Shown: positions 30,490 through 45,632 of the stretch, one piece after another
Layout of the letters: every line of letters starts with the position of its first letter
Position numbering within the stretch: position 1 is the stretch's first letter
Position numbers and translations under genes: made by a program
Notes under the pieces: generated by a model
The model's database searches: none
What the model saw: the letters and a program-made list of their open reading frames with translations, nothing else
What the model was told of the DNA's origin: nothing
Source of the DNA: an uncultured Pirellulales bacterium
Lineage (GTDB): Bacteria > Planctomycetota > Phycisphaerae > Sedimentisphaerales > Anaerobacaceae
Length of the DNA: 64,000 nucleotides
Assembly: GCA_964499145.1 (NCBI GenBank)
Contig: CAZCIR010000012.1
Location: forward strand, 3,603 to 67,602
Direction: 5' to 3'

Positions 30490-31326
30490 ATGAGCAATTT
30501 AGTAATGTCTGAGCGAATTATCCGTCGAAAACCAGGGGTGGTTCCTATTGATTTTAAGGAACTGTTTCGTTATCGCGAGCTTCTTCTTTTTTTAACGTGG
30601 CGTGACATTCTTGTTCGCTATAAGCAGACGGCTATTGGTGTTTGCTGGGCAGTCATTCAGCCATTACTTACTATGGTCGTTTTTACATTTATCTTCGGTC
30701 GAATAGCCAAGTTTCCCAGCAACGATGCCCCTTATGCAGTAATGACATTTGCCGCTATACTGCCGTGGCAGTTTTGTGCCAATGCACTAAGTCAGGGAAG
30801 TAATTCACTTGTGGCATCGGCCAATATGATTCGCAAATTGTATTTTCCCCGAATTATGATTCCGGTAAGCACAACACTTAGCGGGACAATCGATTTTGCT
30901 ATTTCATTTCTGATACTTCTTGTTCTTATGCTTGTGTATCAAATTCAATTTCGTGTTCATTTGCTATTGCTGCCTTTGTTTTTCATGCTGGGATTTGCTA
31001 CGGCATGGGGGGCGAGTCTTTGGTTTGGAGCACTAAATGTTAAGTATCGAGACGTTAAATATGTGATTCCATTTGTTGTTCGAATGGGTATGTATATCAG
31101 TCCTGTGGGATTTATGAGCAGTATCATACCGGAAAAATGGCAGTTTTGGTACAGTTTGAATCCGTTGGTCGGAGTAATCGACGGTTTTCGCTGGGCGATT
31201 CTCGGGCCTGAGTTTGAGCCTTACTGGCCTGGTTTCTGGACAAGCACAGTTATAGTAACGGTAATTCTTGTAACAGGTACTTATTATTTTCGCTCTATGG
31301 AAAAAACATTTGCAGATGTGATTTAG
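30490..31326 (+). CDS. wzm: ABC-2 type polysaccharide export permease (Wzm/TagG family)
   Basis: The protein has six helices. The N-terminal region ELFRYRELLLFLTWRDILVRYKQTAIGVCWAVIQPLL is the typical ABC2_membrane signature. Confidence 0.85.
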   Translation: MSNLVMSERIIRRKPGVVPIDFKELFRYRELLLFLTWRDILVRYKQTAIGVCWAVIQPLLTMVVFTFIFGRIAKFPSNDAPYAVMTFAAILPWQFCANALSQGSNSLVASANMIRKLYFPRIMIPVSTTLSGTIDFAISFLILLVLMLVYQIQFRVHLLLLPLFFMLGFATAWGASLWFGALNVKYRDVKYVIPFVVRMGMYISPVGFMSSIIPEKWQFWYSLNPLVGVIDGFRWAILGPEFEPYWPGFWTSTVIVTVILVTGTYYFRSMEKTFADVI

Positions 31327-31332
31327 GTAAAG

Positions 31333-32652
31333 ATGAATAAACCGGCGATATCAATCCGTAACCTTGGTAAAAGATATAAACTCGGAGCCATCCATTCTCA
31401 CGATACCCTGCGTGATTATCTGGCCAGCGGTATTAAGTATCTTTTTGGGGCTAACGGCCGAGAACGATTAAAGTTGAAATCAAAAGATAATCAGCGATTG
31501 TCAACTGAAGAAAATAAAGGTGTAATCTGGGCTTTGAGAGATATTAGCCTCGATATTCATGAAGGCGAAGTTATTGGCATTATCGGTAGAAATGGTGCAG
31601 GTAAATCGACACTCCTGAAACTTATCAGTGAAATAACAGAACCAACCGAAGGTGAGATTCGCATTTTTGGTCGGGTCGCCAGTTTGCTTGAAGTTGGAAC
31701 GGGTTTTCATCCTGAACTTTCCGGCAGGGAGAATATATATCTTAACGGTTCGATACTCGGGATGACGAGAAAAGAAATCAAAGCGAGATTCGATGAAATA
31801 GTTGCATTTGCTGAGGTGGAAAGATTTATTGATACGCCGGTAAAACGATATTCAAGTGGTATGTACCTTCGTTTAGCTTTTGCTGTGGCGGCGCATTTGG
31901 AACCTGAAATTTTGCTGGTGGATGAAGTGTTGGCAGTTGGAGATATCAACTTTCAAAGGAAATGTCTCGGAAAAATGGGAGACGTTAGTAAATCGGGACG
32001 TACCATTTTATTTGTAAGCCATAATATGGGAGCGATAGGGAGTTTGTGCAGTCGTACCTGCTGGATTGATAGAGGCCGTTTGTGTAAAGAAGGCCCTACC
32101 AAAGAAGTCATAGAAGCTTATTTGTCAGGCTCAGCGGTTGGCGATGCAGTTGAAGGCGGCTTACAAATGCGCAGGATCTGTGGAGGCGATGAAATTAGAC
32201 TTACCAAAGTGGAATTATTTAACGGTGATTTTAATGAATCACAGTTTTTTAATTATAATGACACAATGATAATGCGTTTTCATTTCCAAGTAATTAATCC
32301 TAAACGCAAGTACTTTGCAATCGAGTGGACAATTTGCACTAAAATGGGTACAAGGATAATCTACGGATCTTCTAGCCCACAACAGGAATTACTGATAACG
32401 CCTACGGCCAAGACAGGGTGTGTTGAATGTTGTATACCTCATATTCCTTTGGCAGAGGGTGCATATCAGGTAAATTGTTCATTGTCAATACCACACCGTG
32501 AAAGATTAGATCTGGTAGAAGACACAGTTAATTTCCAGGTTGTAGCGTGCGATCCTTATAAAACAGGATTTAACTTAAGCGACAAAGTAGCTTCAACAAC
32601 ATTAGCTAATTCGTGGACTATATCGAACGGTGCCAAAGCCATGGGTAGCTAA
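31333..32652 (+). CDS. wzt: Polysaccharide ABC exporter ATP-binding protein (Wzt/TagH family) with a C-terminal substrate-binding-type extension
   Basis: It has Walker A (GRNGAGKST), the signature YSSGMYLRLAF and Walker B (ILLVDE). About 170 extra C-terminal residues sit where Wzt_C carbohydrate-binding domains occur. Confidence 0.9.
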   Translation: MNKPAISIRNLGKRYKLGAIHSHDTLRDYLASGIKYLFGANGRERLKLKSKDNQRLSTEENKGVIWALRDISLDIHEGEVIGIIGRNGAGKSTLLKLISEITEPTEGEIRIFGRVASLLEVGTGFHPELSGRENIYLNGSILGMTRKEIKARFDEIVAFAEVERFIDTPVKRYSSGMYLRLAFAVAAHLEPEILLVDEVLAVGDINFQRKCLGKMGDVSKSGRTILFVSHNMGAIGSLCSRTCWIDRGRLCKEGPTKEVIEAYLSGSAVGDAVEGGLQMRRICGGDEIRLTKVELFNGDFNESQFFNYNDTMIMRFHFQVINPKRKYFAIEWTICTKMGTRIIYGSSSPQQELLITPTAKTGCVECCIPHIPLAEGAYQVNCSLSIPHRERLDLVEDTVNFQVVACDPYKTGFNLSDKVASTTLANSWTISNGAKAMGS

Positions 32653-32713
32653 TATCCTAATGAATTAAACATGGGATATTCCCAATAGCATTTTATTAAC
32701 TAAGAGAACATAT

Positions 32714-33427
32714 ATGAGTACAGTACTAATGAAATTCAGAGGTTTTTTGTCGAGTATAGGGCATTGTTTGGTCAAGTTTTCTAATGAAATGGAACCGCAA
32801 GGGCTTAACTTAAGTGGCGACCGTGATATTGAATGGTCATGGGTGGCCGGAAAAGTGCCAAACGGTTCAGGTAAAGTGTTGAATTTTGGTTGTGGCCCGT
32901 CCGGCCTTTTGAGTATGACGGCAGCACGGCGAGGTTTTGAGGTAGTATCAATAGACCAGTTGCCCGTGTACAACAGCTTCGCAGAAGCAAGTATCAGTAT
33001 TGTTCAAGGTGATATTTTGAAGGCTAATCTATCTGCGGCAAGCTTTGATTTGGTGATAAACTGCTCAACCGTGGAGCATGTTGGTTTAGCAGGTAGGTAT
33101 GGTACGACCAATGATATTGTTGATGGAGATTTGCAGGCAATGGGTGTTTTACGAAAATTGATGAAACCAGAAGCTGTTATGTTGCTTACTATTCCTGTTG
33201 GACAGGATGCGGTTTTTGCGCCGGATCATCGGGTGTATGGCATTGAGCGACTCTGTAAACTTTTGGAGGGATATGTTATAGATGATGAAGAGTATTGGGT
33301 CAAAAACTCTGAGAATAAGTGGGTTAAAGCGAGCAAAGAAGACGCTCTGAGTCGCAAACCGAAGAAACGCTTATATGGACTTGGCTGTTTTGAATTGGGA
33401 ATTTCAAATGATGAGGGGACATGCTGA
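32714..33427 (+). CDS. Class I SAM-dependent methyltransferase (DUF268-like)
   Basis: Motif I is KVLNFGCGPSGL, the post-I motif is VVSID, and there is also FDLVINCSTVEHVG. The call rests on motif-level evidence only. Confidence 0.7.
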   Translation: MSTVLMKFRGFLSSIGHCLVKFSNEMEPQGLNLSGDRDIEWSWVAGKVPNGSGKVLNFGCGPSGLLSMTAARRGFEVVSIDQLPVYNSFAEASISIVQGDILKANLSAASFDLVINCSTVEHVGLAGRYGTTNDIVDGDLQAMGVLRKLMKPEAVMLLTIPVGQDAVFAPDHRVYGIERLCKLLEGYVIDDEEYWVKNSENKWVKASKEDALSRKPKKRLYGLGCFELGISNDEGTC

Positions 33428-35184
33428 CAATTTTTACCAGTCCTAAGCCCTTTACTGAACCACACATCAGTATGATACAGCGCAATGCCATCGGAAGTTG
33501 GCTGGCACTAAAGCCAGCGTGTGAAGTTATTCTGTTCGGCAATGATGCGGGGGTGGCTGAAACCGCGGCAGATTTTGGCGTGAAACATGTGCCTGATGTA
33601 GAGTGCAACAGCGAAGGTCTGCCATTAGTTAGAGATTTGTTTAATAAAGCTGAAGATGTTTCAAATTTTGATATTTTGACGTATATAAACGCGGATATAA
33701 TTTTGTTAAGTGATTTCACAAAAGCAGTGGGGCGTGTCAAAGGACAATTGGCTGATAAACCATTTCTTATGGTCGGGCAACGCTGCGATTTAGAGATTAC
33801 TGAACCGATTGATTTTAAATCTTCAGCATGGGAAGATAATCTGCGGGAACAAATCGAAAAGAGTGGAAGTCTACATGGGCCGGAAGGAATTGATTACTTT
33901 GTCTTCCCTCGTGGGTTGTGGGCTACTTTGAATATTCCTCCTTTGGTAATTGGCCGAGTTGCGTATGACAATTGGTTAATTTATTACGCCCGTTCACAGA
34001 AGAAGATAGATGTCATTGACGCGACAGACGCAGCAAGGGTTGTGCACCAGGAGCATGCTTATCCCACGAATTTACTTTACCAAAGACGTCAAAGCTCGGA
34101 AGCTTTGGAGCAGCTAAGGTTGGCCGGCGGCAATGAGCATCTTTTCAATATAACAGATGCGAATCTGATACTTACCCAAAGCAGGCTTGTTCGGCCTGCT
34201 TTGACAGTTCCCCGTCTTAAACGTATTGCACGAACGGGTCCTGTTTTATATCCAAAGATGGCATTTTATTTTCGGCTGTTTGGAAAGTCGATTTCTTTGT
34301 TGAGAAAACTTCGTCTGTTTCTTCGTCAGACTCGGAAAATCCTTTATGAATCGTACGCAAAGCTACTACATATATCAGCTATGCTCTTGCTGGCTCCTTT
34401 CAAATTAGCACCAGTAGAGACACTTATTGCAATTCGGCAGAGCCTCAAAATAATGCGCCGTATGGATTATAAGTATAGCGGTATTCATCTTCACATTGAT
34501 ACCCGCCACGACCTCGGACGCTGTTTGTGGTCATGTCGCAAAGAACCCGAGACAGTAAAATGGATTGAAAAACATGTCCAAGCAGGTGATGTATTATATG
34601 ACGTTGGAGCTAACGTGGGCGCTTATTCATTGGTTGCGGCAAAGCATACAAAAGACCAGGCCCATATCTATGCATTTGAGCCTTCTTTCTCAACGTTTGC
34701 TAATCTTTGTCAAAATATCCACATTAACAATTGTCAGAATACTGTTACGCCACTGCCGATAGCTCTATCCGATGTTACGACAATCAAGAACAAGCTACAT
34801 TATAGTAGTGTGCTCTCGGGTGCTGCTGAACACGCGCTGAATATGTCTGTAAAGTCGCAGCGGAATGGTTTTGCCCTTCCCGTAATGAGCTTCAGAATTG
34901 ATGATTTGATAGAAAGATTTGAGTTAGAATGTGCCAATTATATGAAGATAGATGTAGATGGGAATGAACTTAAGGTACTGAAAGGTGCAGAGAAACTCCT
35001 CGGTAGTTACGAGCTTAGAAGCGTTTTGATTGAACTTGGTAGTGATGAAAACGAAAATGGTGAAATAATAGACTTCTTAAAGAGCAAGGGGCTGGATTTG
35101 TACTCAAAACACAAGCATTTAATCAGTAAGGTTTCTAATTGTATTTTTTTTAGAGGGAACAGCTTGGGTTCAATATTAACATGA
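33421..35184 (+). CDS. Two-domain protein: uncharacterised N-terminal (glycosyltransferase-like?) domain + C-terminal FkbM-family methyltransferase
   Basis: The C-terminal motifs DVLYDVGANVGAYSLVAAK, IYAFEPSFSTFANL and MKIDVDGNELKVLKGAEKLL are classic FkbM. The N-terminal ~300 aa are unassigned. It overlaps the upstream gene by 7 nt. Confidence 0.75.
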   Translation: MLTIFTSPKPFTEPHISMIQRNAIGSWLALKPACEVILFGNDAGVAETAADFGVKHVPDVECNSEGLPLVRDLFNKAEDVSNFDILTYINADIILLSDFTKAVGRVKGQLADKPFLMVGQRCDLEITEPIDFKSSAWEDNLREQIEKSGSLHGPEGIDYFVFPRGLWATLNIPPLVIGRVAYDNWLIYYARSQKKIDVIDATDAARVVHQEHAYPTNLLYQRRQSSEALEQLRLAGGNEHLFNITDANLILTQSRLVRPALTVPRLKRIARTGPVLYPKMAFYFRLFGKSISLLRKLRLFLRQTRKILYESYAKLLHISAMLLLAPFKLAPVETLIAIRQSLKIMRRMDYKYSGIHLHIDTRHDLGRCLWSCRKEPETVKWIEKHVQAGDVLYDVGANVGAYSLVAAKHTKDQAHIYAFEPSFSTFANLCQNIHINNCQNTVTPLPIALSDVTTIKNKLHYSSVLSGAAEHALNMSVKSQRNGFALPVMSFRIDDLIERFELECANYMKIDVDGNELKVLKGAEKLLGSYELRSVLIELGSDENENGEIIDFLKSKGLDLYSKHKHLISKVSNCIFFRGNSLGSILT

Positions 35185-36248
35185 AAAGGGGGTCTAATAT
35201 GCAGAGGGAATTGATTATCAATGGTCAACGGATAAATGACGAAGCGGATTGTTACGTTGTTGCTGAAATCGGGCACAATCACCAGGGCGATGTTGATACA
35301 GCCAAGAAACTGATTTCTGCAGCTAAAGAATGCGGCGCTGATGCCGTAAAATTTCAGAAGCGTAACAATAAACTACTATTCACCCACACACTTTTAAATC
35401 AGATTTATGATAACCCGAACAGTTACGGCAGGACGTATGGTGAACACCGTGAATTCTTGGAATTCGGTGAAGCTGAATATAAGGAACTCATCGAATATGC
35501 CAAAGAAGTTGATATTACTATGTTTGCAACACCGTTTGATTTCGAAAGCGTTGATTTTTTGGCAGAGCTGAATATGCCCGCCTATAAGATTGCCTCCGGT
35601 GATCTGAGAAATATACCGTTAATTGAGCATATAGCCAGGATGGGAAAACCCATTATCCTGAGTACGGGTGGAGGTACAGAGCAGGATGTCCTGCAGGCAT
35701 ACTATGCAATCAGGCCGCTTAACGACCAATTGGCGATACTTCAATGCACAGCTGCATATCCATGTGAATTCGACAAGATGGATTTGCGAGTAATTGAAAC
35801 TTATCGAAAGATGTTTCCATGCTGTGTGGTTGGTTTGTCTGCTCATGACAATGGTATTGCGATGGCGTTGGTTGCGTATGTCTTAGGTGCGCGAATTATC
35901 GAAAAACATTTTACTCTGAATCGTGCGTGGAAAGGTACAGATCATGCATTTTCTTTAGAACCTATCGGTTTGCGTAAGATGGTTCGAGATTTGCGCCGCG
36001 CTAGAGTTGCATTGGGTAGTAATACAAAGCGTTTTTTTGACTGTGAAATCGGGCCCCTGTATAAGATGTCGAAAATGATTGTGGCAAAACATGATTTACC
36101 GGAAGGGCATATTATTAAGCCTGACGATATTACCTTTAAATCTCCTTGTGCTGGTCTTGAGCCACTTAAAATCAAAGAAGTTATTGGGCGAAGTCTGGCG
36201 TTAAAAGTCAACAGAGACGAAGGTCTCAAACTAGAATATTTCAAATAA
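35181..36248 (+). CDS. Nonulosonate-9-phosphate synthase of the animal NANS-like / KDN-9-P synthase type (NeuB + SAF domains)
   Basis: The sequence VVAEIGHNHQGDVDTAKKLISAAKECGADAVKFQKR...GRTYGEHREFLEF...LQCTAAYPC...LSAHDNGIAMALVAYVLGARIIEKHFTLNRAWKGTDHAFSLEP is colinear with my memory of human N-acetylneuraminate-9-phosphate synthase. The start is either ATG 35181 (ATGA overlap) or ATG 35199 (AAGGGGG RBS). Confidence 0.88.
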   Translation: MKRGSNMQRELIINGQRINDEADCYVVAEIGHNHQGDVDTAKKLISAAKECGADAVKFQKRNNKLLFTHTLLNQIYDNPNSYGRTYGEHREFLEFGEAEYKELIEYAKEVDITMFATPFDFESVDFLAELNMPAYKIASGDLRNIPLIEHIARMGKPIILSTGGGTEQDVLQAYYAIRPLNDQLAILQCTAAYPCEFDKMDLRVIETYRKMFPCCVVGLSAHDNGIAMALVAYVLGARIIEKHFTLNRAWKGTDHAFSLEPIGLRKMVRDLRRARVALGSNTKRFFDCEIGPLYKMSKMIVAKHDLPEGHIIKPDDITFKSPCAGLEPLKIKEVIGRSLALKVNRDEGLKLEYFK

Positions 36249-36250
36249 TT

Positions 36251-36754
36251 ATGTACGATACAAAACTTAAAAAAATAATAGATGGTATCCGTTTGCTGGT
36301 TTTTGACTTCGATGGGGTTTTTACGGATAACTCTGTCTATGTCAATCAATATGGCGAGGAGATGGTTCGCTGCTGTCGAAGTGATGGAATCGGTTTGGAA
36401 AAAATCAAGCGGTTAGGAATTAAGACGATAGTTCTCTCGGCAGAAATCAATTCTGTAGTTCAGACTCGAACCAAGAAACTGGGGATAGAATGCATCCAAG
36501 GGTGCAATGATAAGTTGGTAAAGCTCGAAGAAATTATTCAAAAAATGGGTATTAGCTTTGCTCAAGTTTGTTTTATGGGTAATGATGTCAATGATTTATC
36601 ATGTTTGAAGAAAGTAGCATTGCCCATCGTGGTTTGTGATGCATATCATGAGATAATTGGATTTGCTCGATATCAAACCAAAGCAAAAGGCGGATATGGA
36701 GCTGTGCGGGAGGTGTGTGACTTGTTCGAATGTATTTTAACTTCCAGAGTGTAG
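36251..36754 (+). CDS. HAD-IIIA KdsC-family phosphatase (candidate nonulosonate-9-P / KDN-9-P phosphatase)
   Basis: Motifs are LLVFDFDGVFTDN, CRSDGIGLEKIKRLGIKTIVLS, MGNDVNDLSC and GGYGAVREVCDL. It starts 2 nt after the synthase gene. Confidence 0.85.
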   Translation: MYDTKLKKIIDGIRLLVFDFDGVFTDNSVYVNQYGEEMVRCCRSDGIGLEKIKRLGIKTIVLSAEINSVVQTRTKKLGIECIQGCNDKLVKLEEIIQKMGISFAQVCFMGNDVNDLSCLKKVALPIVVCDAYHEIIGFARYQTKAKGGYGAVREVCDLFECILTSRV

Positions 36755-36765
36755 TCTATCTTAAA

Positions 36766-37584
36766 ATGAGGCAAAATCTTTTTAGTGTAGAGAACAAAAT
36801 TGTGGTTATCACCGGTGGACTTGGCCAACTTGGACGGCAGTTTGCTTTCTCCTTGCTGGATCAGGGAGCAAAGGTCGCTATCTTTGATATTGATATTAAC
36901 AAAGAAAAGGTGGCAAAAAGATTTGGCGGACAAACGACTGAAAGGAATTTACTGTTTCTTTCTGTAAATATTACAAAGCGAGAATCGATAGAGGGTGGTT
37001 TGAAACAGGTAAATGAGGCATGGGGCACACCGGATGGATTGATTAATAATGCTGCGATGGATTCACCTCCTGATGCGTCGGCAGAAGAGAACGGGCCTTT
37101 TGAGAGTTATCCTGCAGAATCGTTGGACAAAATATCAGAAGTTAACATCAAAGGTTGCTTTCAATGTTGTCAGGTAATAGGTGGGCAAATGGCCAAAGCC
37201 GGTGGCGGTTCGATAGTTAATATTTGTTCAATTTATGGGGTAGTATCACCTGACCAGCGCATTTATGAATATCGCAAGAAAGATGGTACTTCATTTTTTA
37301 AGCCAGCAGCTTATTCAGTATCCAAATCTGCGTTATTAAATCTAACACGTTATTTGGCCACATATTGGGGTGACAAAAACGTAAGGGTTAATACGCTTAC
37401 GCCCGGAGGTGTTTTTAACGATCAAGATGAACAGTTTCTGGATGGTTATTGCAGACGCGTTCCTTTGGGGAGAATGGCACGCGAGGATGAATACAACGGC
37501 GCGATATTATTTTTGATGTCCAAGGCTTCTGCATATATGACAGGGGCTAATCTTGTTATCGATGGTGGGTGGACGGCGTGGTGA
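36766..37584 (+). CDS. Short-chain dehydrogenase/reductase (SDR)
   Basis: Track ORF 36730..37584; ATG 36766 avoids the overlap. Motifs are VVITGGLGQLG, NNAA and YSVSKSAL (YxxxK). Confidence 0.85.
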   Translation: MRQNLFSVENKIVVITGGLGQLGRQFAFSLLDQGAKVAIFDIDINKEKVAKRFGGQTTERNLLFLSVNITKRESIEGGLKQVNEAWGTPDGLINNAAMDSPPDASAEENGPFESYPAESLDKISEVNIKGCFQCCQVIGGQMAKAGGGSIVNICSIYGVVSPDQRIYEYRKKDGTSFFKPAAYSVSKSALLNLTRYLATYWGDKNVRVNTLTPGGVFNDQDEQFLDGYCRRVPLGRMAREDEYNGAILFLMSKASAYMTGANLVIDGGWTAW

Positions 37585-37639
37585 CATGTTAAAATTGCAA
37601 TAACATATTAAAACTTGCAGAGTTATTCAGGAACAAGAT

Positions 37640-39103
37640 ATGCATATACCTAAAGTTGTATCCAACTGGATTGACGGTAATGAGCAATTTGCGTGTGAGG
37701 GAAGAGTTTTTACTAAATTAAACCCGGCTAACGGCAAAGTTCTGTGCGAGGTGACAAGATCAAAAACAGAAGATATCGCATTGGCGGTGCAGGCGGCAAA
37801 AGAGGCACAGTCTGGGTGGGCGGATACTCCAGCGGTAAAACGTGGCATGATACTTCATGATATTGTGCTGGGAATGCAGGAACGTCAAAAAGATATTGCG
37901 AAAATAGTAGCGGCAGAGACCGGTAAGTCATATAAAGATGCATATGGTGAAACCGATGCAGCGATAGCTTTGGGATTATTCTACGCCAGCGAGGGGCAAC
38001 GGCTTTATGGTCGGACATGTACGAGTGGCCGGGTGAATAAATATGCTATGACGGTTCGAGAGCCTGTTGGTGTGGCGGGTTTGATTGTCGCTGCGAACAC
38101 ACCTATTGCAAATATGGCGTGGAAGGTGTTTCCTGCATTGATTTGCGGTAATGGAGCTGTTTTGAAGGCCGCGGAGGACACACCAACAACAGCGTGGATA
38201 GTCGGTCAAATTGCTCATGAGGCTGGTTTGCCGAAGGGTGTATTAAATATTGTTCAGGGTTATGGTGAAGAGGCCGGTGCAGCTTTGGTTAAACATTCGG
38301 ATGTTGGAGTAATTAGTTTTACCGGTTCGACAAAAGTAGGCCGATATGTTCAACGGATAGCGGGTGAGCGTCTTGCAAAAGTGTCATTAGAACTCGGCGG
38401 CAAAAATGCGTTGGTGGTGTGCGATGATGCTGATCTGGAGAACGCGGTCAACTGGGCGTTGCTTTCATCATTTAGTAATGCCGGCCAACGTTGCGCTGCT
38501 TCAAGCCGTATCATTATTTTTGACAGCATTTATAATAAGTTTTGCAGTTTATTGGTGAAACGTACAAAAATACTTAAGGTTGGACCTTCAGATAAGGAGA
38601 ACCTTGGTCCGGTAATAAGTGAAAAGCAGCTCAACAATATGCTTAGCGCCATAGAACGGGCACAAAAGGAAGGAGCCAGAGTGCTTATCGGTGGCCACAG
38701 ATTGACTGATGATAAACACAGCAAAGGGTTTTATATGGCACCAACTTTAATTGAGGATGTCACACCGGAGAATACTATTTCGACCACGGAGTTATTTGGG
38801 CCGATTACATGTCTGTATCGTGTTAGCAACTTTGAGGAGGCATTGAATTTGGCTAATGATTCGCCTTACGGTCTTACGGCAAGTATTCACACGAATAATA
38901 TTCATCGGGCCATCAAGTTCACTCGGGAAGTGCAGGCGGGAGTGGCGGTGGTTAACGCTGGGACTCACGGCAGCGAAGCACATATGCCCTTTGGTGGAGT
39001 TAAGTCATCTGGGAATGGCTGGCGTGAGCCAGGGACTGAAGCATTGGATGTTTATTCAGAGTTGAAAAGTATTTATGTGAATATTGATCCTGGTGCGGTT
39101 TAA
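37640..39103 (+). CDS. NAD(P)-dependent aldehyde dehydrogenase
   Basis: Motifs are FTGSTKVG, LELGGKNA and the catalytic-Cys region FSNAGQRCAASSR, together with PFGGVKSSGNG. Confidence 0.9.
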   Translation: MHIPKVVSNWIDGNEQFACEGRVFTKLNPANGKVLCEVTRSKTEDIALAVQAAKEAQSGWADTPAVKRGMILHDIVLGMQERQKDIAKIVAAETGKSYKDAYGETDAAIALGLFYASEGQRLYGRTCTSGRVNKYAMTVREPVGVAGLIVAANTPIANMAWKVFPALICGNGAVLKAAEDTPTTAWIVGQIAHEAGLPKGVLNIVQGYGEEAGAALVKHSDVGVISFTGSTKVGRYVQRIAGERLAKVSLELGGKNALVVCDDADLENAVNWALLSSFSNAGQRCAASSRIIIFDSIYNKFCSLLVKRTKILKVGPSDKENLGPVISEKQLNNMLSAIERAQKEGARVLIGGHRLTDDKHSKGFYMAPTLIEDVTPENTISTTELFGPITCLYRVSNFEEALNLANDSPYGLTASIHTNNIHRAIKFTREVQAGVAVVNAGTHGSEAHMPFGGVKSSGNGWREPGTEALDVYSELKSIYVNIDPGAV

Positions 39104-39117
39104 GAATAGTCAGAAAT

Positions 39118-39891
39118 ATGTCTAAAGAATGCAAAATCATAGCATTGATACCGGCAAGATCGGGATCGAAGCGATTGTCAGACAAAAATATTCGTCCTCT
39201 GGGAGGTCATCCTTTAATTGCTTATACGATAGCCGCTGCTTTGCAAAGCAGAATTTTTGATACAGTTTTTGTTTCAACGGATTCAGAGCGTTACGCTGAG
39301 ATTGCAAAGTATTACGGTGCTGAGGTTTCTTTTCTCAGGCCAGTTGAGATATCCGGCAATCTAAGCCCTGATATTGAATGGGTTAGAGATACTCTTGAGC
39401 GGCTCGATGGTGAGGGGCGCAATTATAAATGTTTCAGCATTTTGCGCCCTACCAGTCCATTCCGTCAAGCAGATACGATACGGCGTGCGTGGCAGGAATT
39501 CACATCCAAAAAAGGCGTGGATTCAATTCGTGCAGTTGAACTTTGCAAGCAACATCCTGGCAAAATGTGGGTTATTCTTGGTAAAAGAATGGTTCCCTTA
39601 TTACCGTTAGGTTCTACAGGTCAACCTTGGCATAGTAGTCAGTACCAGTCATTACCCAAAGTCTATGTCCAAAATACAAGTCTGGAAATTGCATGGACAC
39701 GTATTGTTTTCGAAGAAGGGACAATTGCCGGGAATATTGTGGAGCCTTTCTTGACTCAAGGCTATGAAGGTTTTGACGTGAATGACTCCTATGACTGGGA
39801 ATTGGCGGAAAAGCTTGTTCAGAGAGGACAAGCTATTTTGCCAAACATTTCTCAAAAAGAGCCATATCAACAAGGTAATCAAAGCAATTAA
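39118..39891 (+). CDS. Acylneuraminate (nonulosonate) cytidylyltransferase family protein
   Basis: The N-terminus IALIPARSGSKRLSDKNIRPLGGHPLIAYTI and the later RPTSPFR are typical of CMP-sialic acid/CMP-Kdo synthetase-like enzymes. Confidence 0.85.
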   Translation: MSKECKIIALIPARSGSKRLSDKNIRPLGGHPLIAYTIAAALQSRIFDTVFVSTDSERYAEIAKYYGAEVSFLRPVEISGNLSPDIEWVRDTLERLDGEGRNYKCFSILRPTSPFRQADTIRRAWQEFTSKKGVDSIRAVELCKQHPGKMWVILGKRMVPLLPLGSTGQPWHSSQYQSLPKVYVQNTSLEIAWTRIVFEEGTIAGNIVEPFLTQGYEGFDVNDSYDWELAEKLVQRGQAILPNISQKEPYQQGNQSN

Positions 39892-40006
39892 ACCAAATCA
39901 GAAAAAGTATAGCTAATAATCATACCTTGCATAATTCCTTATTATTTCACAGAAGATTAAAACCGTTTCTATAATTGCATAAATCGTTATAGAGCAGTTT
40001 AAAACA

Positions 40007-41932
40007 ATGGTAAATCTGACATTGATAGGCAAAAAAGAATTTGACCGTGTTTGTAAAGCGGGGATAAATAAATATGACATGCTGGCACTGCTGGCGGACA
40101 TGTGCAGAGCGAATACTTTAGCTGCGGTTAAGCATGCAGGTTCAGGCCACTTAGGTTCGAGTTTTAGTGCAATGGATATTGTTGTTTGGCTGTACTATCA
40201 TCAAATGAATACTCGGTCAGTGGGTATCGATAGTCCGGATAGAGATATTTACTTTTCATCAAAGGGACACGATGTTCCGGGATTGTACTCGGTTTTGTTT
40301 TCTCTGGGAGTTATATCTACGGATAATTTTTTAAAACTTCGTCGCATGGATGGTCTTGCTGGTCATCCGCACGTGAGCATTCCAGGAATTGAGGCCAATT
40401 CGGGATCTTTGGGAATGGGGATTTCCAAGGGTAAGGGGATGGCCTTTGCAAAACATTTCCATGGCAATAAAGGTCGTGTGTTTGTTATGACGGGAGATGG
40501 TGAGCTGCAGGAGGGACAAATATACGAAGCACTGCAAACAACCCGCCATCAGGGAATTACTAATTTACATGTGATAGTAGACCACAACAAGGTACAATCA
40601 GACAAGCCTGTTAGTACAATTACTGACTTAGGCAATCTGGAGGCCAAGTTCAAAACCTTTGGATGGTGTACGGCACGTTGTAATGGACATAACTTTCAAG
40701 AACTTGACGGGATTCTTAACGAATTTACGAAAGTCGCAGATAAACCTAAAATATTGATTGCCGATACAATTAAAGGACGTGGTGTATCATTTATGGAGCA
40801 TCCGGCAGCAATGAAAGCTACTAATGGGTTATATCGCTGGCACTCAGGTGCACCTGACGATGACTCTTTTACTGCTGGATATAATGAGATCATTAGCCGA
40901 ATAAATAACTGTTTGGCACGTCTTAAATTACCTCCCATAGTACTGGAGGAGGTATTACCGCAAGAAAAAAAACCAAGTGGTGTATCTAATGAGTATGTAG
41001 CTGAGGCTTTCGGAGAGGCGTTGGTTGAAATAGCAGCTGAACGTGAAGATATAGTGGTGTTGGATGCCGATTTGGCCGTTGATTGTCATATTCGCAACTT
41101 CGAGAACAAATATCCTGAACGCTTTATCGAAAACGGAATTGCAGAGCAGGATATGGTTTCGATGGCAGGAGGTTTGGCACTGGAGGGCATGCTACCAGTT
41201 GTCAATACCTTTGCAGCATTTTTAGCTTCGAGAGCCAATGAACAAATTTATACGAATGCCTGTGAACGAACCAAGATTATCTATATTTGTCATTATGCCG
41301 GCCTGATACCTGCTGGTCCGGGAGAATCGCATCAGAGTATTCGTGATATATCTGTACTTGGGGCGTTGGCTAACATTGAGATTATTGAGCCTTGCAATAG
41401 TATAGAAACTCAGATGGCTTTGAAATATTGTGTTGAACAAGCAAGCGAGAATTGTGTATTGCGACTTATAATCGGACCCTCGCCCCGTATTATTGCATTG
41501 CCCCATGAATATCAATTAAAGATCGGCCATGGAATTATGCTTAGAGAAGGGGCTGATGCGGTAATGTTTGCTTATGGTCCTGTGATGCTGCATGAGGCAC
41601 TTTTAGCAAGTGAAAAAATGGCAGAAGATGGTTTTGGTTTAAAGGTTGTAAATATGCCATGGCTTAATCGGATTGATATTAGCTGGCTTGAATCGGTTAT
41701 TAGTGAAACTAAGGCGGTATATGTGATTGAAGATCATGCTCCTGTCGGAGGCTTAGGTGATCTTGTTTTAAATAATATTTTGTCTTGTGGGCTTATAAAA
41801 AGCAATACAATATTTAGAAAATTTGCGGTTGAAGGTCATCCGGCATGTGGTAAGCCTGCCGAGGTGTTGAGATATCATTGTTTAGATGGTGTTTCACTTG
41901 CGAATCGTGTAGCAGATGACTTTGACATTTGA
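40007..41932 (+). CDS. Transketolase-family ThDP enzyme (N- and C-terminal halves fused)
   Basis: Motifs are GSGHLGSSFSAMDIV and the ThDP motif GDGELQEGQIYEA...N. The C-terminal half carries pyrimidine-binding and transketolase_C-like regions (FIENGIAEQDMVSMAGGLA). Confidence 0.85.
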   Translation: MVNLTLIGKKEFDRVCKAGINKYDMLALLADMCRANTLAAVKHAGSGHLGSSFSAMDIVVWLYYHQMNTRSVGIDSPDRDIYFSSKGHDVPGLYSVLFSLGVISTDNFLKLRRMDGLAGHPHVSIPGIEANSGSLGMGISKGKGMAFAKHFHGNKGRVFVMTGDGELQEGQIYEALQTTRHQGITNLHVIVDHNKVQSDKPVSTITDLGNLEAKFKTFGWCTARCNGHNFQELDGILNEFTKVADKPKILIADTIKGRGVSFMEHPAAMKATNGLYRWHSGAPDDDSFTAGYNEIISRINNCLARLKLPPIVLEEVLPQEKKPSGVSNEYVAEAFGEALVEIAAEREDIVVLDADLAVDCHIRNFENKYPERFIENGIAEQDMVSMAGGLALEGMLPVVNTFAAFLASRANEQIYTNACERTKIIYICHYAGLIPAGPGESHQSIRDISVLGALANIEIIEPCNSIETQMALKYCVEQASENCVLRLIIGPSPRIIALPHEYQLKIGHGIMLREGADAVMFAYGPVMLHEALLASEKMAEDGFGLKVVNMPWLNRIDISWLESVISETKAVYVIEDHAPVGGLGDLVLNNILSCGLIKSNTIFRKFAVEGHPACGKPAEVLRYHCLDGVSLANRVADDFDI

Positions 41933-41982
41933 CATCTGAGTTAGATATTTATCTAAAACGATAAATTACTACCAGGATATAT

Positions 41983-43686
41983 ATGAAAACAGTTAAACAA
42001 CTCGTTCCACAACCAATAAAGAAAACTGTCAAAAAGTTGATTGGATGGCGGCACTCGAGCTATCCTAACTGGAATGAAATTATCAAGCCAGAGCAAAAGC
42101 ATTGGCAATCGGTTCTTCAATCAGCTAAAGGAGGCAGTAAGATTTTAATCGCTACGAGCATTGGAGGCTCTGCTCTGCATAATGTTTTTGATAGTACTTT
42201 AGCGGCTTCTCTTACTTTACGTGGTGCTGATGTTCATGTATTGCTCTGTGATAGTTTCTTGTCTGTTTGCCTACGGCCAGAGTATTCTATGGTCACAAGC
42301 GTCGAAGCCTTTGCAAATGGTGGAGCGCAAAAGGTCGGCCTTTGTGATACATGTTTTGAGCTGGCAGAGATAATGTATAAAGATATGGGTATTAAAGTCC
42401 ATCGATATAGCGAACTCGTAGGTTCTGATAAGTACAAGATGGCTTATGAGCAGTCAACTAATCTATCAATAGACCAAATCAAAGACTATGAAGTTGATGA
42501 CATCGCAGTAGGTGAGCATGCGCTGGCTGGTACTCTTAGATTCTATGCTCGGGGTGATTTGGATGGCGAAGCTTATGGTGAGCAGGTTCTCCGTCATTAC
42601 TTTAAGGCATCGCTTTTGACAGTGTATGCTATGGATTCGCTTTTTGCGCTACATGACTTTGAATGTGTTGTGGCTCATCATGGCATTTACGTGCCACAGG
42701 GTCTCATAGTCGGATCTGCTCATAAGAATTCTGTTCGTGTTGTTACATGGTGGACGGCCTACCGAAATAAGTGCTTCATGCTTGCTCATAATGATTCCTA
42801 TCACCATGCACTGCTTGACGAGCCGATACCCAATTGGGAAAACGTGAAGTGGACTGATCAGTTAGAAACGCAAGTAATGGAATATCTGATAAGCCGTGAA
42901 AGAGGAACTCGCGATTGGGTACAGTACAATGTTAGACCAGAAGAAGAAGTCTCGATAATCGAAAAAGAGTTGGGGATAGATTTTTCAAAACCTACGATTG
43001 GTCTTTTATCAAATGTGGTTTGGGATGCCCAGCTGCATTTTAAAACGAGAGCGTTTCCCGATATGATGAGTTGGATATATGCTACTATTGAATATTTTGC
43101 CAAGCGACCTGAACTTCAATTGGTGATTCGAGCCCATCCCGGCGAAGTTATTAAGTCTCACAAATCTCGACAGCCACTGGTCGATGAAATTGGTAAAAAA
43201 TATCCAACATTACCAGCTAATATTTATATTATTCCCCCTGAAAGTTTAATCAGCACCTATGTTACTATGCAGCAATGCAATGCGGTTCTGATCTATGGAA
43301 CGAAAACCGGCATGGAGATGTCCAGCCGAGGTATACCAATAATTGTATCCGGTGAGGCATGGATTCGAAACAAAGGCTTTACTATGGATGCATCAACGCC
43401 GGAGGAATATCATTCATATCTTGACCAATTACCATTGAAAGAAAGAATGGACGAATCTTCCGTGCGAAGAGCGAGGATGTATGCTTATCATTTTTTCTTC
43501 CGGCGAATGATCCCACTTAAATTCATGGTTAAAATTGAGAATCCACCAACATTTAATCTTGATATATCAAGCATATTTGAACTTGCACCAAATAAGTGTA
43601 TCGGTCTTGACGTTATATGTGACGGTATTTTAAAGGCAAAAGAGTTTATCTATCCTGCCGAGCTGGCTATTGAAAACATCGAATAG
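41983..43686 (+). CDS. Uncharacterised 567-aa protein; possibly a KpsC/KpsS-like (capsule-synthesis type) ulosonic-acid transferase
   Basis: It is a soluble two-lobed protein with an HP motif in LVIRAHPGE and a later IYGTKTGMEMSSRGIPIIVSGEAW. The resemblance to capsule-biosynthesis (Kdo-transferase-like) proteins is at impression level only. Confidence 0.4.
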   Translation: MKTVKQLVPQPIKKTVKKLIGWRHSSYPNWNEIIKPEQKHWQSVLQSAKGGSKILIATSIGGSALHNVFDSTLAASLTLRGADVHVLLCDSFLSVCLRPEYSMVTSVEAFANGGAQKVGLCDTCFELAEIMYKDMGIKVHRYSELVGSDKYKMAYEQSTNLSIDQIKDYEVDDIAVGEHALAGTLRFYARGDLDGEAYGEQVLRHYFKASLLTVYAMDSLFALHDFECVVAHHGIYVPQGLIVGSAHKNSVRVVTWWTAYRNKCFMLAHNDSYHHALLDEPIPNWENVKWTDQLETQVMEYLISRERGTRDWVQYNVRPEEEVSIIEKELGIDFSKPTIGLLSNVVWDAQLHFKTRAFPDMMSWIYATIEYFAKRPELQLVIRAHPGEVIKSHKSRQPLVDEIGKKYPTLPANIYIIPPESLISTYVTMQQCNAVLIYGTKTGMEMSSRGIPIIVSGEAWIRNKGFTMDASTPEEYHSYLDQLPLKERMDESSVRRARMYAYHFFFRRMIPLKFMVKIENPPTFNLDISSIFELAPNKCIGLDVICDGILKAKEFIYPAELAIENIE

Positions 43687-43718: not shown

Positions 43719-45632
43719 ATGTGTGGAATTTGCGGTGTAGTTTCGAATAACCCATTAGAAGAAGGTGGTTTAGTCTGTGTCGAAAATATGGCCGGCGATC
43801 TTGGTCATCGAGGGCCTGATGCGCGGGGGATATGGCAAAATAAAAGAGCAGCACTCGGACACAGGCGGCTGGCTATTTTGGATCTCTCGGAGACGGGACA
43901 TCAACCGATGGTTTGCATGAATGGACGTTATGTCGTTGTTTTCAATGGAGAAATTTATAATTTCGTGGAACTTCGACGTGAACTGTCCGCTAAAGGATAT
44001 AGTTTTAAGACTGAATCAGATACCGAAATAATAGCAGCATCCTATGATGCGTGGGGTAAAGATTGTTTGAATCATTTTAACGGGATGTGGGCATTTGGGC
44101 TGTGGAATTGTCAAAATGAATCGTTAGTTCTAGCTCGAGATCGTTTTGGCATTAAGCCCCTATACTTTTTTTACGATGGAAACATACTTGCTTTTGCATC
44201 TGAAGTTAAAGCATTGCATAGATGGTTGGGTAACAGCGCCAAATTAGATGCTGATGTCGTTTCCGATATATGCATGGGAAGATTTAGCAGTCATGGAACA
44301 GAAAAAACATATTTAAGGGACGTTAGAAGCTTATCGGCAGGTTATATGGCGTGTTTGAGAGATGGTCAATTGAACATCGAACACTGGTACAATCTTTTGC
44401 CCGTGGATGTACCTCAAACATTACCTGAGCAGGCAGAGATGTTTCGTGATTTGTTTTTTGATTCATGCAGGCTGCGACTTCGCAGTGATGTGCCTGTTGG
44501 GACGTGTTTATCTGGAGGATTGGATAGCAGCAGTATCGTTTCGGTGCTGCATAAATGCTTAGGCCAAACAGCAGGTGAACGGGCTACATCAGATTTTCAT
44601 GACGCATTTTGTGCGAGTTTCCCGAAAACCGTGATTAATGAAGCACAAGAGGCACAAACTCTTGCACAAGGGATTGACGCAAGACTGCATGTGTTGGATA
44701 TCATCGCTCCTTCTTCGGATGATCTGGAAGAAGCCATGAGAGCGTGTGATGGACCCATGCACAGCTTGGCCTTTTATCCTATTTGGAAATTGTATGGTTT
44801 TATTAATCAGCATAATATTAAGGTGACTTTAGACGGACAAGGTCCCGATGAGATGCTGGGCGGGTATCGTCCATTTTTGTCAGCTTTCAGGGCAGCACTG
44901 AATGGACGTGATTTGAGTTGGGCGATGGATGTATATAAAACTTATGGTAATCAGGGTAGAAATGAGCAATTTAATGCTAAAATGGAAGTTCGGTCAGCGT
45001 TTTTCTATGAGCTTCGGAGTCGCTATTTACCAAACTTTCTGATTCGACTCGCGAAAAGTATTACTGGGCATAAGGCTGGTAAAATGGTTGATGAGGTGAA
45101 ACTGAGATTCACTAACCCAACTCCAAACGGCTTAGATGAGTTTCAATCGGAACTTTACAACGAGTTTTTTCAATCTCCATTACCTGGAATTTTACAGCAA
45201 TATGATCGTTGTTCTATGGCACATGGTATTGAGTGCCGTATGCCATTTATGGACTATAGGTTAGTGGAGTTTATGTTCTCTTTACCAAATACTTCGCGTG
45301 TTGGAGGCGGATATACCAAGAGGATTTTGCGGGAGGCTATGAAAGGGATTGTACCTGAGACTATTCGCACGCGGAAAACCAAAATAGGTTTTAACGCTCC
45401 AATAGTTGATTGGTTCCGTGGCCCATTGAGAGGGTGGATTCGAGATATTATGGTCAGTCGACAATTTAGTGAATCCCCTTTCTTTGACGGTAAAGGTCTC
45501 GTGCAAGAGTTTGAAGATTTTTTGAAAACAAATAAACCAAGCTGGAATTTGGCATGGAAATTTTGGGGGGCGGTGCATTTTACATGGTGGCAGCAGAACT
45601 GTAAAAACATTCAGGAGATGTATATCGCTTGA
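43719..45632 (+). CDS. Asparagine synthase (glutamine-hydrolysing) family amidotransferase
   Basis: It has the N-terminal nucleophile MCGICG, HRGPD, and the PP-loop CLSGGLDSS. Confidence 0.9.
   Translation: MCGICGVVSNNPLEEGGLVCVENMAGDLGHRGPDARGIWQNKRAALGHRRLAILDLSETGHQPMVCMNGRYVVVFNGEIYNFVELRRELSAKGYSFKTESDTEIIAASYDAWGKDCLNHFNGMWAFGLWNCQNESLVLARDRFGIKPLYFFYDGNILAFASEVKALHRWLGNSAKLDADVVSDICMGRFSSHGTEKTYLRDVRSLSAGYMACLRDGQLNIEHWYNLLPVDVPQTLPEQAEMFRDLFFDSCRLRLRSDVPVGTCLSGGLDSSSIVSVLHKCLGQTAGERATSDFHDAFCASFPKTVINEAQEAQTLAQGIDARLHVLDIIAPSSDDLEEAMRACDGPMHSLAFYPIWKLYGFINQHNIKVTLDGQGPDEMLGGYRPFLSAFRAALNGRDLSWAMDVYKTYGNQGRNEQFNAKMEVRSAFFYELRSRYLPNFLIRLAKSITGHKAGKMVDEVKLRFTNPTPNGLDEFQSELYNEFFQSPLPGILQQYDRCSMAHGIECRMPFMDYRLVEFMFSLPNTSRVGGGYTKRILREAMKGIVPETIRTRKTKIGFNAPIVDWFRGPLRGWIRDIMVSRQFSESPFFDGKGLVQEFEDFLKTNKPSWNLAWKFWGAVHFTWWQQNCKNIQEMYIA

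Follow-up and report, generated by a model that had tools for sequence, protein, structure and literature searches.

A conserved bacterial gene cassette that may direct synthesis of a CMP-activated, tail-modified Kdn-type nonulosonic acid

A 64,000-nucleotide stretch of contig CAZCIR010000012.1 (positions 3,603 to 67,602; assembly GCA_964499145.1) from an uncultured Pirellulales bacterium, referred to below as the window and numbered from its first letter, contains a block of six genes that combines the enzymes of a nonulosonic acid pathway with enzymes of other classes. The block comprises ~6.8 kb in all and encodes a nonulosonate synthase, a phosphatase of the haloacid dehalogenase (HAD) type, a short-chain dehydrogenase/reductase (SDR), an aldehyde dehydrogenase (ALDH), a cytidylyltransferase and a transketolase-like enzyme dependent on thiamine diphosphate (ThDP). 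The six open reading frames (ORFs) lie on the + strand and have the domains ascribed to them in an earlier note made from the sequence; their spacing ranges from overlap up to 115 nt, and the catalytic motifs are intact in all six translations. As that note had indicated, the phosphatase gene starts 2 nt past the synthase stop and the cytidylyltransferase lies 2.36 kb downstream of the phosphatase (2.4 kb claimed). The gene order needs one correction: only the SDR and ALDH genes are located between phosphatase and cytidylyltransferase, where the note had also put the transketolase, which lies 3' of the cytidylyltransferase gene. The block is part of an unbroken run of + strand genes (30490-46654) within a surface-polysaccharide locus of ~40 kb.

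The synthase gene (35181..36248, with the likelier start at M7, position 35199, matching the called gene P0001) encodes NeuB (PF03102, E=1.7e-80) and SAF (PF08666, E=7e-8) domains, and the metal-binding His residues are present. The protein is colinear with human NANS (reference sequence an exact match to NP_061819.2), with 42% identity over 336 residues, one gap and a score of 295 bits, whereas solved bacterial enzymes score far lower in HMMER comparisons (SpsE 151 bits, PseI 146, Neisseria meningitidis NeuB 125). It also scores below the equivalog cut-offs of the NCBIfam models for NeuB (NeuB_NnaB) and PseI. The motif PY[DE]N.NS[YF]G.TYGEHRE.LEF is common to the window synthase, 72 cassette homologues, human NANS and the synthetase of Prymnesium parvum that makes the 9-phosphate of 3-deoxy-D-glycero-D-galacto-nonulosonic acid (Kdn). 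In contrast, four NeuC-linked NeuB proteins encoded in cassette-bearing genomes are without the motif and only ~30% identical to the window synthase. These comparisons agree with the earlier note, which had aligned the synthase with the vertebrate enzyme and set it apart from ordinary NeuB, and they classify it, at the level of sequence, as a NANS-type, 9-phosphate subtype of the NeuB family. The Prymnesium enzyme (PpKdn9PS) is 38% identical (159 bits), shorter and without the SAF domain; it uses mannose 6-phosphate (Man-6-P) while free mannose is not converted (PMC6200933, the supplement of which also provided the sequences of this enzyme and of the phosphatase BT1713). For the cassette, too, Man-6-P appears the likeliest hexose 6-phosphate, since no N-acetylmannosamine (ManNAc) or other amino-sugar genes are present, and the condensation of Man-6-P with phosphoenolpyruvate (PEP) to Kdn 9-phosphate (Kdn-9-P) would be the most economical first step. 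The dedicated phosphatase next to the synthase speaks indirectly for a phosphorylated substrate.

The adjoining phosphatase (36251..36754) is a C0-type HAD enzyme of the KdsC/YrbI family (TIGR01670, 117.3 bits, cut-off 106.95) with the nucleophile motif FDFDG/DxD. Its best NCBIfam score is with the KdsC equivalog NF007019 (121 bits), below the cut-off of 208, and it likewise remains below that of the Kdn-9-P phosphatase equivalog NF058599 (102 bits, cut-off 180). The identity with BT1713, the Kdn-9-P phosphatase of Bacteroides thetaiotaomicron, is 33%. In an alignment of the cassette copies, at BT1713 positions 56, 64 and 67, which we take to be the specificity residues of Kdn-9-P phosphatase, E/R/K is found in 29 of 29 cassette phosphatases as compared to R/R/T in Escherichia coli KdsC. 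The position after the T-G motif is Glu in all 29 copies and Arg in E. coli KdsC. At the three positions the enzyme sides with BT1713 and not with KdsC, in line with the Bacteroides precedent that the earlier note had invoked, and these residues suggest a Kdn-9-P-phosphatase-like enzyme. Neither NeuC nor a ManNAc kinase, aminotransferase or acetyltransferase was detected in a Pfam scan of the sizeable ORFs of the window, again as the note had it. Together with the NANS-type synthase and the BT1713-like phosphatase residues this supports its proposal of a non-aminated, Kdn-type acid made from a sugar phosphate.

The SDR gene (36766..37584; a longer ORF begins at 36730) encodes a classical, PtmA-like enzyme (PF13561 and PF00106) with TGxxxGxG and YxxxK motifs; its best NCBIfam model is PRK09186, below cut-off. 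The ALDH (37640..39103; PF00171, E=3e-154, 514 bits) is NAD(P)-dependent and contains the catalytic motifs ELGGK and GQRC. Its closest NCBIfam models describe 2,5-dioxovalerate/alpha-ketoglutarate-semialdehyde dehydrogenases (KGSADH), of which the best reaches 455 bits against a cut-off of 770, only slightly ahead of other ALDH families, and no equivalog cut-off is met. KGSADH-type enzymes oxidise the omega-aldehyde of a 2-keto-3-deoxy acid, and this kinship gives a slight hint that the cassette ALDH makes an omega-carboxylate. The cytidylyltransferase (39118..39891; CTP_transf_3, PF02348, 83.8 bits) has the N-terminal motif IPARSGSKRL (PARxGSK). The nearest structure is the cytidine monophosphate (CMP)-N-acetylneuraminic acid (Neu5Ac) synthetase of N. 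meningitidis (NmCSS, 77 bits, versus 33 bits for KdsB), the identity with the Prymnesium CMP-Kdn synthetase is 31%, and the PseF equivalog is missed (131 bits, cut-off 206). The predicted CMP-nonulosonate synthetase is thus sialate-type by its nearest relatives, not KdsB-type.

The last gene of the block (40007..41932) encodes a fused three-domain protein (Pfam N, Pyr and C domains). The closest solved structure is human transketolase (TKT; 215 bits), with which it is colinear over all three domains, and it reaches none of the NCBIfam cut-offs for transketolase or Dxs. When 29 cassette copies are aligned with human TKT, the residues H37, H77, H110, D155, N185, K244, H258, E366, F389 and F392 (human numbering) are invariant, and the ThDP motif GDG...N is kept. 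The phosphate-binding site of TKT is formed by R318, S345, H416 and R474, and D424 recognises the adjacent hydroxyl, at C2 of the acceptor. Across the 29 copies the four phosphate-binding residues are replaced by E/Q, D, Y/L/F and I/S, respectively (E, D, Y and I in the window), and D424 is Pro in all of them, with AGPG where TKT reads GEDG (active-site residue list from PMC8016368). HMMER and MAFFT agree at S345, H416 and D424. The simplest reading of these replacements is a ThDP enzyme with transketolase-type chemistry on a substrate without phosphate. This would place the step downstream of the phosphatase, and it argues against a supply of precursor from sugar phosphates.

To analyse the conservation of the block, one genome per species was scanned, which yielded 272 synthase relatives; the best 80 (57-63% identity, GTDB) were fetched with their flanks, and gene order was derived from tblastn searches with the window proteins and from unbiased clustering of all ORFs. 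The recurrent order is synthase-SDR-ALDH-cytidylyltransferase-transketolase, with the phosphatase after or just before the synthase. It is found in at least eight phyla, including Desulfobacterota, Chloroflexota/Anaerolineales, Verrucomicrobiota, Latescibacterota, Melainabacteria, Acidobacteria, and Alpha- and Gammaproteobacteria, with identities to the window proteins of 42-68% for the SDR and 57-73% for the other cassette proteins. Among 82 loci, many of them on short contigs, the clusters contain the synthase 73 times, the SDR 57, the ALDH 53 (copies 60-71% identical), the cytidylyltransferase 45, the transketolase 36 and the phosphatase 24 times. As the same gene order recurs in dozens of unrelated genomes the arrangement is not due to chance. 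Thousands of homologues of the cassette proteins are found in database searches. When the search was started from the transketolase, all three long contigs examined carried the gene inside a cassette, and the contexts of transketolase or transferase homologues were cassettes in four of four cases. One of the loci, L096, found via the 567-residue protein encoded downstream of the transketolase, is syntenic with the window over at least nine genes, which run from the synthase past the transketolase to the 567-residue protein, an AsnB-type gene and a gene similar to family 2 glycosyltransferases (GT2), and onward.

For the earlier note, SDR, ALDH and transketolase genes that travel apart from the nonulosonate genes would have counted against its reading. 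The synteny with synthase and cytidylyltransferase across phyla and the four reverse contexts speak against such independence, while the three genes prove to be modular additions and not an obligate trio. Cassettes with the SDR only (9 loci), with SDR and ALDH (7 loci) and with SDR, ALDH and transketolase (25 loci, the window included) occur next to two loci with SDR and transketolase but no ALDH (L035 and L084) and seven, all from Anaerolineales, with ALDH and transketolase but no SDR or phosphatase nearby; in L052 and L063 the transketolase is split. When cassettes with the SDR only are compared to those with SDR and ALDH, their synthases, SDRs and cytidylyltransferases are orthologous and up to 94, 86 and 88% identical, respectively. 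The gene contents suggest a core of synthase, SDR and cytidylyltransferase to which ALDH and transketolase are added as modules. Within the Desulfobacterota cassettes the alignments contain no column that segregates with transketolase or ALDH presence in the synthase or the cytidylyltransferase, one in the SDR and two, both conservative, in the ALDH. With the transketolase in particular, no specificity-determining position of SDR or cytidylyltransferase co-varies, and in the ALDH only the two conservative ones do. From this near-absence of segregating columns the core enzymes seem to handle the same substrates with or without the add-ons, which speaks against a transketolase that supplies the synthase with a different precursor and gives no positive support for any particular order of tailoring steps.

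Some of the loci show additional features. In the SDR-less Anaerolineales cassettes no replacement dehydrogenase or phosphatase was found nearby; the neighbours are methyltransferases, glycosyltransferases and a carbamoyltransferase. A cluster of proteins of ~395 amino acids (c25; L029, L030, L037, L055 and L086) is encoded between phosphatase and synthase, mainly in cassettes without ALDH and transketolase. It was considered as an aminotransferase, as in a route to 8-amino-8-deoxy-Kdo (Kdo8N; Kdo denotes 3-deoxy-D-manno-octulosonate), and rejected, the sequence being unlike an aminotransferase. Genomes with the cassette often have a second, ordinary cluster close by, composed of NeuB, a NeuC-like protein and a cytidylyltransferase (L065, L079, L083, L087, L052), and probably make two different CMP-ulosonates in the same cell. 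In the Desulfobacterota (L001, L004, L010-L063, e.g. L024:1-10000) the cassette lies directly downstream of a conserved module of an acyl-AMP ligase, an NAD-dependent reductase/epimerase, an acyl carrier protein, an alpha-oxoamine synthase (Aminotran_1_2) and an MsbA-like ATP-binding cassette (ABC) exporter. LptF/LptG are encoded next to the module, and in many cases sulfotransferases and a pair of paralogous ~468-residue proteins with an R-P-H-P-T-E motif come after it; its make-up suggests an anchor of the sphingolipid or aminolipid type that bears the ulosonic acid. As the Desulfobacterota neighbours differ in this way, the sugar is evidently used in different glycoconjugates.

In the window, the genes around the block point to the use of the sugar. 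Downstream, the 567-residue protein (41983..43686) matches the Capsule_synth family PF05159 weakly (17.8 bits, cut-off 20, E=0.0025). Its homologues are named 'capsule biosynthesis protein', some that are 50% identical pass PF05159, and H385-P386-x-E388 is invariant in the family. An AlphaFold (AF2) model shows a GT-B fold (mean predicted local distance difference test score, pLDDT, 89.9) with the best TM scores (0.51-0.57) and the lowest root-mean-square deviation to the KpsC beta-Kdo transferases 6mgb, 6mgc and 8fuw. This KpsC-like protein is our candidate CMP-ulosonate transferase. Homologues also follow the transketolase in L096 and L084, L091 has a confident Capsule_synth protein that passes PF05159 beside its cassette, and a homologue in Moorena producens does not adjoin a cassette. 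The next gene (43719..45632) encodes an AsnB-type glutamine-dependent amidotransferase (PF00733 and GATase domains; TIGR01536, 422 bits, cut-off 267). In L096 and L091, as in the window, such a gene lies next to the cassette, and L026 likewise contains an AsnB-like ORF. The enzyme may amidate the carboxylate made by the ALDH: as Pfam scans identified no uridine diphosphate (UDP)-sugar 6-dehydrogenase or other uronic-acid-forming gene in the window locus, the ALDH product would be the obvious target. The run ends with a GT2-like protein of 341 amino acids (45629..46654; weak PF00535, E=0.004), and a 340-residue GT2-like gene occupies the matching position in L096.

Upstream of the block, on the same strand, lie a Wzm-type ABC-2 permease for glycan export (30490..31326; PF01061, E=5e-18), a Wzt ATPase with a C-terminal carbohydrate-binding domain (31333..32652; PF00005 and PF14524 Wzt_C, E=3.5e-11), an S-adenosylmethionine (SAM) methyltransferase (32714..33427; DUF268/Methyltransf_11, Pfam) and a 587-residue protein (33421..35184) with a C-terminal FkbM-family methyltransferase (PF05050 and TIGR01444 above cut-off), whose N-terminal 360 residues have no Pfam match. 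The wzm and wzt genes also flank the cassette in L034, L064, L065, L069, L071 and L084, and methyltransferases adjoin it in the Anaerolineales loci as well. The carbohydrate-binding domain of Wzt implies, as far as domain content can tell, that a capped chain end is recognised by the exporter. Based on the KpsC-like transferase, this domain and the flanking methyltransferases, the modified ulosonate would be a chain-end or near-end residue of an ABC-exported glycan.

A variant cassette bears on the product of the ALDH. In L093 (7089-9171) the ALDH and cytidylyltransferase genes are separated by two more, for an MR_MLE enzyme of the enolase superfamily, a putative acid-sugar dehydratase, and for a 2-keto-acid reductase of the ApbA type. 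For an acid-sugar dehydratase to act, the carboxylate of its substrate must be accompanied by an alpha-proton and a beta-hydroxyl, as in a -CHOH-CHOH-COO- end. The 2-keto-3-deoxy end of an ulosonate cannot supply this group, but an oxidised glycerol tail can. Thus, the dehydratase and reductase right after the ALDH argue for a second carboxylate made by the ALDH, and the L093 variant suggests a further deoxygenated derivative of the diacid. In cassettes with SDR and ALDH, the only plausible source of the aldehyde is the SDR acting on the dephosphorylated tail.

Taken together, we propose with a probability of about 0.5 that the block is an operon-like cassette for a CMP-activated, tail-modified, Kdn-type nonulosonic acid of a surface glycan. 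The pathway steps follow from homology and gene context. The NANS-type synthase would condense PEP with a hexose 6-phosphate, likeliest Man-6-P, to a nonulosonate 9-phosphate, and the Kdn-9-P-phosphatase-like HAD enzyme would free the 9-hydroxyl. The SDR would then oxidise the freed glycerol tail to an aldehyde, from which the ALDH would form a second carboxylate and thereby an 'ulosaric' diacid. The transketolase-like enzyme may shorten the chain by breaking a C-C bond in the oxidised tail of a non-phosphorylated intermediate, the aldehyde product being also oxidised by the ALDH. After CMP activation by the cytidylyltransferase, the KpsC-like GT-B enzyme would transfer the sugar, and the AsnB-type enzyme may amidate the new carboxylate. 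Export of the glycan would proceed via Wzm/Wzt, with the sugar as a methylated chain-end cap or part of one, as suggested by the Wzt carbohydrate-binding domain and the neighbouring methyltransferases. The parts of this proposal differ in strength: a core Kdn-type 9-phosphate pathway is highly probable, an omega-carboxylate made by SDR and ALDH has about an even chance, and a tail-cleaving role of the transketolase is tentative and rather doubtful.

For the latter, the chemistry can be spelled out. If a dehydrogenase made an 8-ketone, the tail read from C9, HOCH2-CO-CHOH-CHOH-, would be D-threo like a transketolase donor. Removal of C9-C8 would leave a C7 aldehyde for the ALDH and lead to a 3-deoxy-heptulosaric acid, and a ring oxygen at C6 would agree with the missing D424. 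Among the roles considered for the transketolase this one is favoured. Tail cleavage would account for the phosphatase, dehydrogenase, transketolase and ALDH travelling together. The heptulosaric product derived from Kdn would be the L-arabino isomer, not the D-lyxo isomer known as 3-deoxy-D-lyxo-heptulosarate (Dha). That the ThDP enzyme, by cutting the glycerol tail, forms with SDR and ALDH the first route to CMP-activated 3-deoxy-ulosaric acids, with a Dha-type C7 heptulosaric acid, optionally amidated by AsnB, as the product, is an unlikely outcome in our estimate. A strict order SDR, transketolase, ALDH, attractive for its stereochemistry, was discarded as the only sequence of steps: it is not supported by the SDR+ALDH cassettes that have no transketolase, nor by the ALDH alignment, in which no positions track that enzyme, and it is kept as a sub-model.

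Several points weigh against the proposed pathway. Classical SDRs usually oxidise secondary and not primary alcohols. Cassettes with SDR and ALDH but without transketolase show that the ALDH is independent of the latter, two loci have a transketolase and no ALDH, and nothing points to a shortened sugar as the substrate of ALDH or cytidylyltransferase in cassettes with transketolase; tail cleavage thus misfits both the SDR+ALDH-only cassettes and the segregating-column result. In the Anaerolineales cassettes that have ALDH and transketolase with no SDR or phosphatase nearby, no neighbouring gene accounts for the aldehyde. Indels around TKT R318 and R474 render these two of the residue assignments less certain. 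The synthase may use ManNAc-6-P or another aldose phosphate in place of Man-6-P. No cultured carrier was found among the 80 GTDB loci, which all derive from metagenome-assembled genomes or uncultured symbionts. Finally, the comparison of the phosphatases assumes the specificity role of E56, R64 and K67 of BT1713 that was reportedly assigned by Lu et al. 2009.

The earlier note had offered two roles for the additional enzymes, the building of an unusual precursor or the modification of the nonulosonate, for example to a diacid. Of these the second is favoured, while the first is disfavoured for the transketolase by the lost phosphate-binding residues and the unchanged synthase. In the precursor scheme SDR, ALDH and transketolase would act before the synthase and build an unusual aldose phosphate such as a tetrose or rare hexose phosphate. 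The interconversion of sugar phosphates is indeed the normal reaction of transketolases, enzymes of central metabolism are often encoded in dedicated copies within polysaccharide loci, and a cytidylyltransferase that is unchanged in the presence of the add-on genes is what one expects if these act far upstream. However, none of the four canonical residues that bind phosphate is kept in the clade, and the synthase, without a single segregating position and up to 94% identical between cassette types, apparently sees a constant substrate. Moreover, the ALDH would destroy the very aldehyde that the synthase needs, and ORF clustering reveals no isomerase or kinase in the cassette. We regard this scheme as unlikely.

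An equally unlikely pair of alternatives retains the tailoring of a Kdn-type acid by the cassette and assigns the transketolase a different reaction. It may extend a 9-aldehyde formed by the SDR with a C2 unit, to an ulosonic acid of 11 carbons, or it may decarboxylate an alpha-keto-acid tail after the ALDH and a second oxidation, with the loss of one carbon per cycle. The lost phosphate site suits such reactions, and the near-restriction of the transketolase to cassettes with ALDH (two loci without) fits an ALDH-dependent step such as the decarboxylation. The C8 hydroxyl of Kdn is D (2R), the configuration preferred by transketolases in acceptor aldehydes, and transketolases use hydroxypyruvate as an irreversible, decarboxylating donor. 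On the other hand, in the C2 addition ALDH and transketolase would compete for one aldehyde; the decarboxylation requires one SDR to act on two different positions and a small glycolaldehyde pocket to accommodate a large group. The sequences favour neither reaction over the other or over tail cleavage.

It is more improbable still that the cassette contains a plain Kdn or Neu5Ac pathway, with SDR, ALDH and transketolase serving another sugar of the glycan or a small acid substituent such as glycolate or glycerate. That the core enzymes do not co-vary with the add-ons would be expected in this case, the locus contains many other transferases and methyltransferases, and transketolase-type enzymes deliver glycolaldehyde units in some natural-product pathways. 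Against this scheme, the genes stay inside the synthase-to-cytidylyltransferase block across phyla and in very different glycan loci (Wzm/Wzt O-antigen-like, Wzx-type and the lipid-linked Desulfobacterota systems), no acyl-activating or acyl-transfer gene belongs to the cassette, and the SDR is part of the minimal synthase-SDR-cytidylyltransferase core.

Least probable of all is an eight-carbon, Kdo-type pathway from arabinose 5-phosphate, for instance to Dha by oxidation and loss of C8: the KdsC/YrbI family membership of the phosphatase with its higher KdsC score (121 versus 102 bits for the Kdn-9-P phosphatase model), the resemblance of the 567-residue transferase to beta-Kdo transferases, and the Kdo configuration of Dha at C4-C6 together with its unknown biosynthesis are outweighed by a synthase of the NeuB/NANS and not the KdsA family, the Glu of the phosphatase where Kdo-8-phosphate phosphatases have Arg, a sialate-type and not KdsB-type cytidylyltransferase, and the lack of an arabinose 5-phosphate isomerase in the cassette.

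The proposed Kdn-type pathway with tail modification resembles several known systems in part. With the CMP-Kdn pathways of B. thetaiotaomicron (BT1714/BT1713) and P. parvum (PMC6200933) it shares a NANS-type sugar-6-phosphate synthase, a C0 HAD phosphatase, a sialate-type cytidylyltransferase and the absence of amino-sugar genes, at 31-38% identity to the characterised enzymes and, in the phosphatases, with the E/R/K residues of BT1713; it differs by the SDR in its core and by the ALDH, transketolase-like, AsnB-type and KpsC-like genes. The 9-phosphate route and the colinear synthase are also those of the vertebrate NANS/NANP/CMAS pathway, from which the cassette is distinguished by a KdsC-family instead of a NANP-type phosphatase, the absence of the GNE epimerase/kinase and the location in a bacterial glycan locus. 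A precedent for the order of events is the Kdo8N pathway of Shewanella oneidensis (KdnB and KdnA; Gattis et al. 2013, via PMC4402001), in which free Kdo is reported to be modified at its tail before activation. Oxidation of the terminal carbon of a free 3-deoxy-ulosonic acid prior to transfer of CMP would thus be common to both, as a likeness of logic and not of homology: as described there, an iron-type alcohol dehydrogenase and a transaminase convert a C8 sugar to an amine, whereas SDR and ALDH would convert a presumed C9 sugar to an acid.

The individual enzymes likewise combine known and deviating features. The transketolase-like protein has the three domains, the GDG...N motif, the cofactor-activating Glu and the catalytic His of human TKT, E. 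coli TktA and 1-deoxy-D-xylulose 5-phosphate (DXP) synthase, but, unlike canonical transketolases, its phosphate-binding residues and the acceptor-reading Asp are replaced and it is confined to nonulosonate cassettes in the cases examined. The candidate transferase resembles KpsC/KpsS (GT107) and the systems that terminate the chains of ABC-exported O-antigens with Kdo in its predicted GT-B fold, the HP motif and a position beside a CMP-ulosonate pathway and a Wzt with carbohydrate-binding domain, while it is marginal in sequence (the PF05159 score given above) and ~250 residues larger than the KpsC domain. AsnB-type amidotransferases of O-antigen loci, such as Francisella WbtH and Pseudomonas WbpS, amidate UDP-hexuronic acids. 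The AsnB homologue of the window is similarly encoded in a glycan locus adjoining genes that would make a sugar carboxylate; here, however, no uronic-acid pathway is present, and the presumed target is the ulosonic carboxylate made by the ALDH.

The remainder of the polysaccharide locus encodes Wza-, Wzc- and CpsB-like proteins, a WecA-like initiating transferase and many glycosyl- and methyltransferases. Two proteins of the window have Wzy_C domains, one of them (842 amino acids) fused to TPR repeats. Since the Wza/Wzc/CpsB-type genes and the Wzy_C proteins (20953-29445, 50033-51406) lie beside the Wzm/Wzt exporter in one locus, two assembly/export systems are, by their predicted functions, encoded side by side. 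Between the WecA-like gene and wzm (29524-30144) lie two short ORFs, the first of which, of 93 residues, aligns with no more than positions 17-108 of the GDP-mannose 4,6-dehydratase profile; this looks like what is left of a gmd gene after truncation or a frameshift. A B12-binding radical SAM enzyme encoded inside the glycan locus (57145-58617) may be a C-methyltransferase; it adjoins a 598-residue family 1 glycosyltransferase (GT1) with an N-terminal, thymidylate-kinase-like P-loop segment (55324-57120). On the opposite strand, a 536-residue fusion of Memo-like and AMMECR1 proteins (15937-18702, - strand) adjoins a radical SAM gene, so that two parts of the 'AmmeMemoRadiSam' triad (Memo-like, AMMECR1, radical SAM) are fused in the window. 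A further unusual fusion, a 1276-residue protein with spermidine-synthase-like, FMN_bind and 4Fe-4S (Fer4_5) domains (12110-15940, - strand), is located in a polyamine neighbourhood with a pyruvoyl arginine decarboxylase (8407-8958) and an arginase/agmatinase-family gene (7523-8386).

Full-text searches combining nonulosonic acid or NeuB with transketolase, ALDH or cytidylyltransferase retrieved no publication that describes the cassette, and its restriction to uncultured bacteria among the carriers found may explain how it escaped study. We know of no role for enzymes of the ALDH and transketolase-like classes in any described ulosonic-acid pathway. The cassette is abundant in environmental bacteria and pairs the rare 'animal-type' 9-phosphate route with an ALDH and a transketolase-like enzyme; it probably represents a CMP-Kdn/sialate pathway extended by tailoring chemistry, the product of which is probably an acidic sugar that is yet undescribed. 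Dha, the only well-known natural ulosaric acid, has been reported from the lipopolysaccharide of Acinetobacter haemolyticus, and a 2025 review lists its biosynthesis and activated form as unknown. If our reading is true, the cassette would make a new family of dicarboxylic or amidated ulosonic acids, its transketolase-like enzyme would represent a new reaction type for this fold, and it would offer a starting point, as a first enzymatic model, for the question of how Dha-type sugars are made and activated in plants and algae, which is still unsolved. How phages, immune systems and lectins recognise bacterial surfaces depends on nonulosonic acids such as Kdn and the sialic, legionaminic and pseudaminic acids. 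To our knowledge the biosynthetic repertoire of nonulosonic acids is small, and the cassette would add to it a new, widespread class of bacterial surface sugars.

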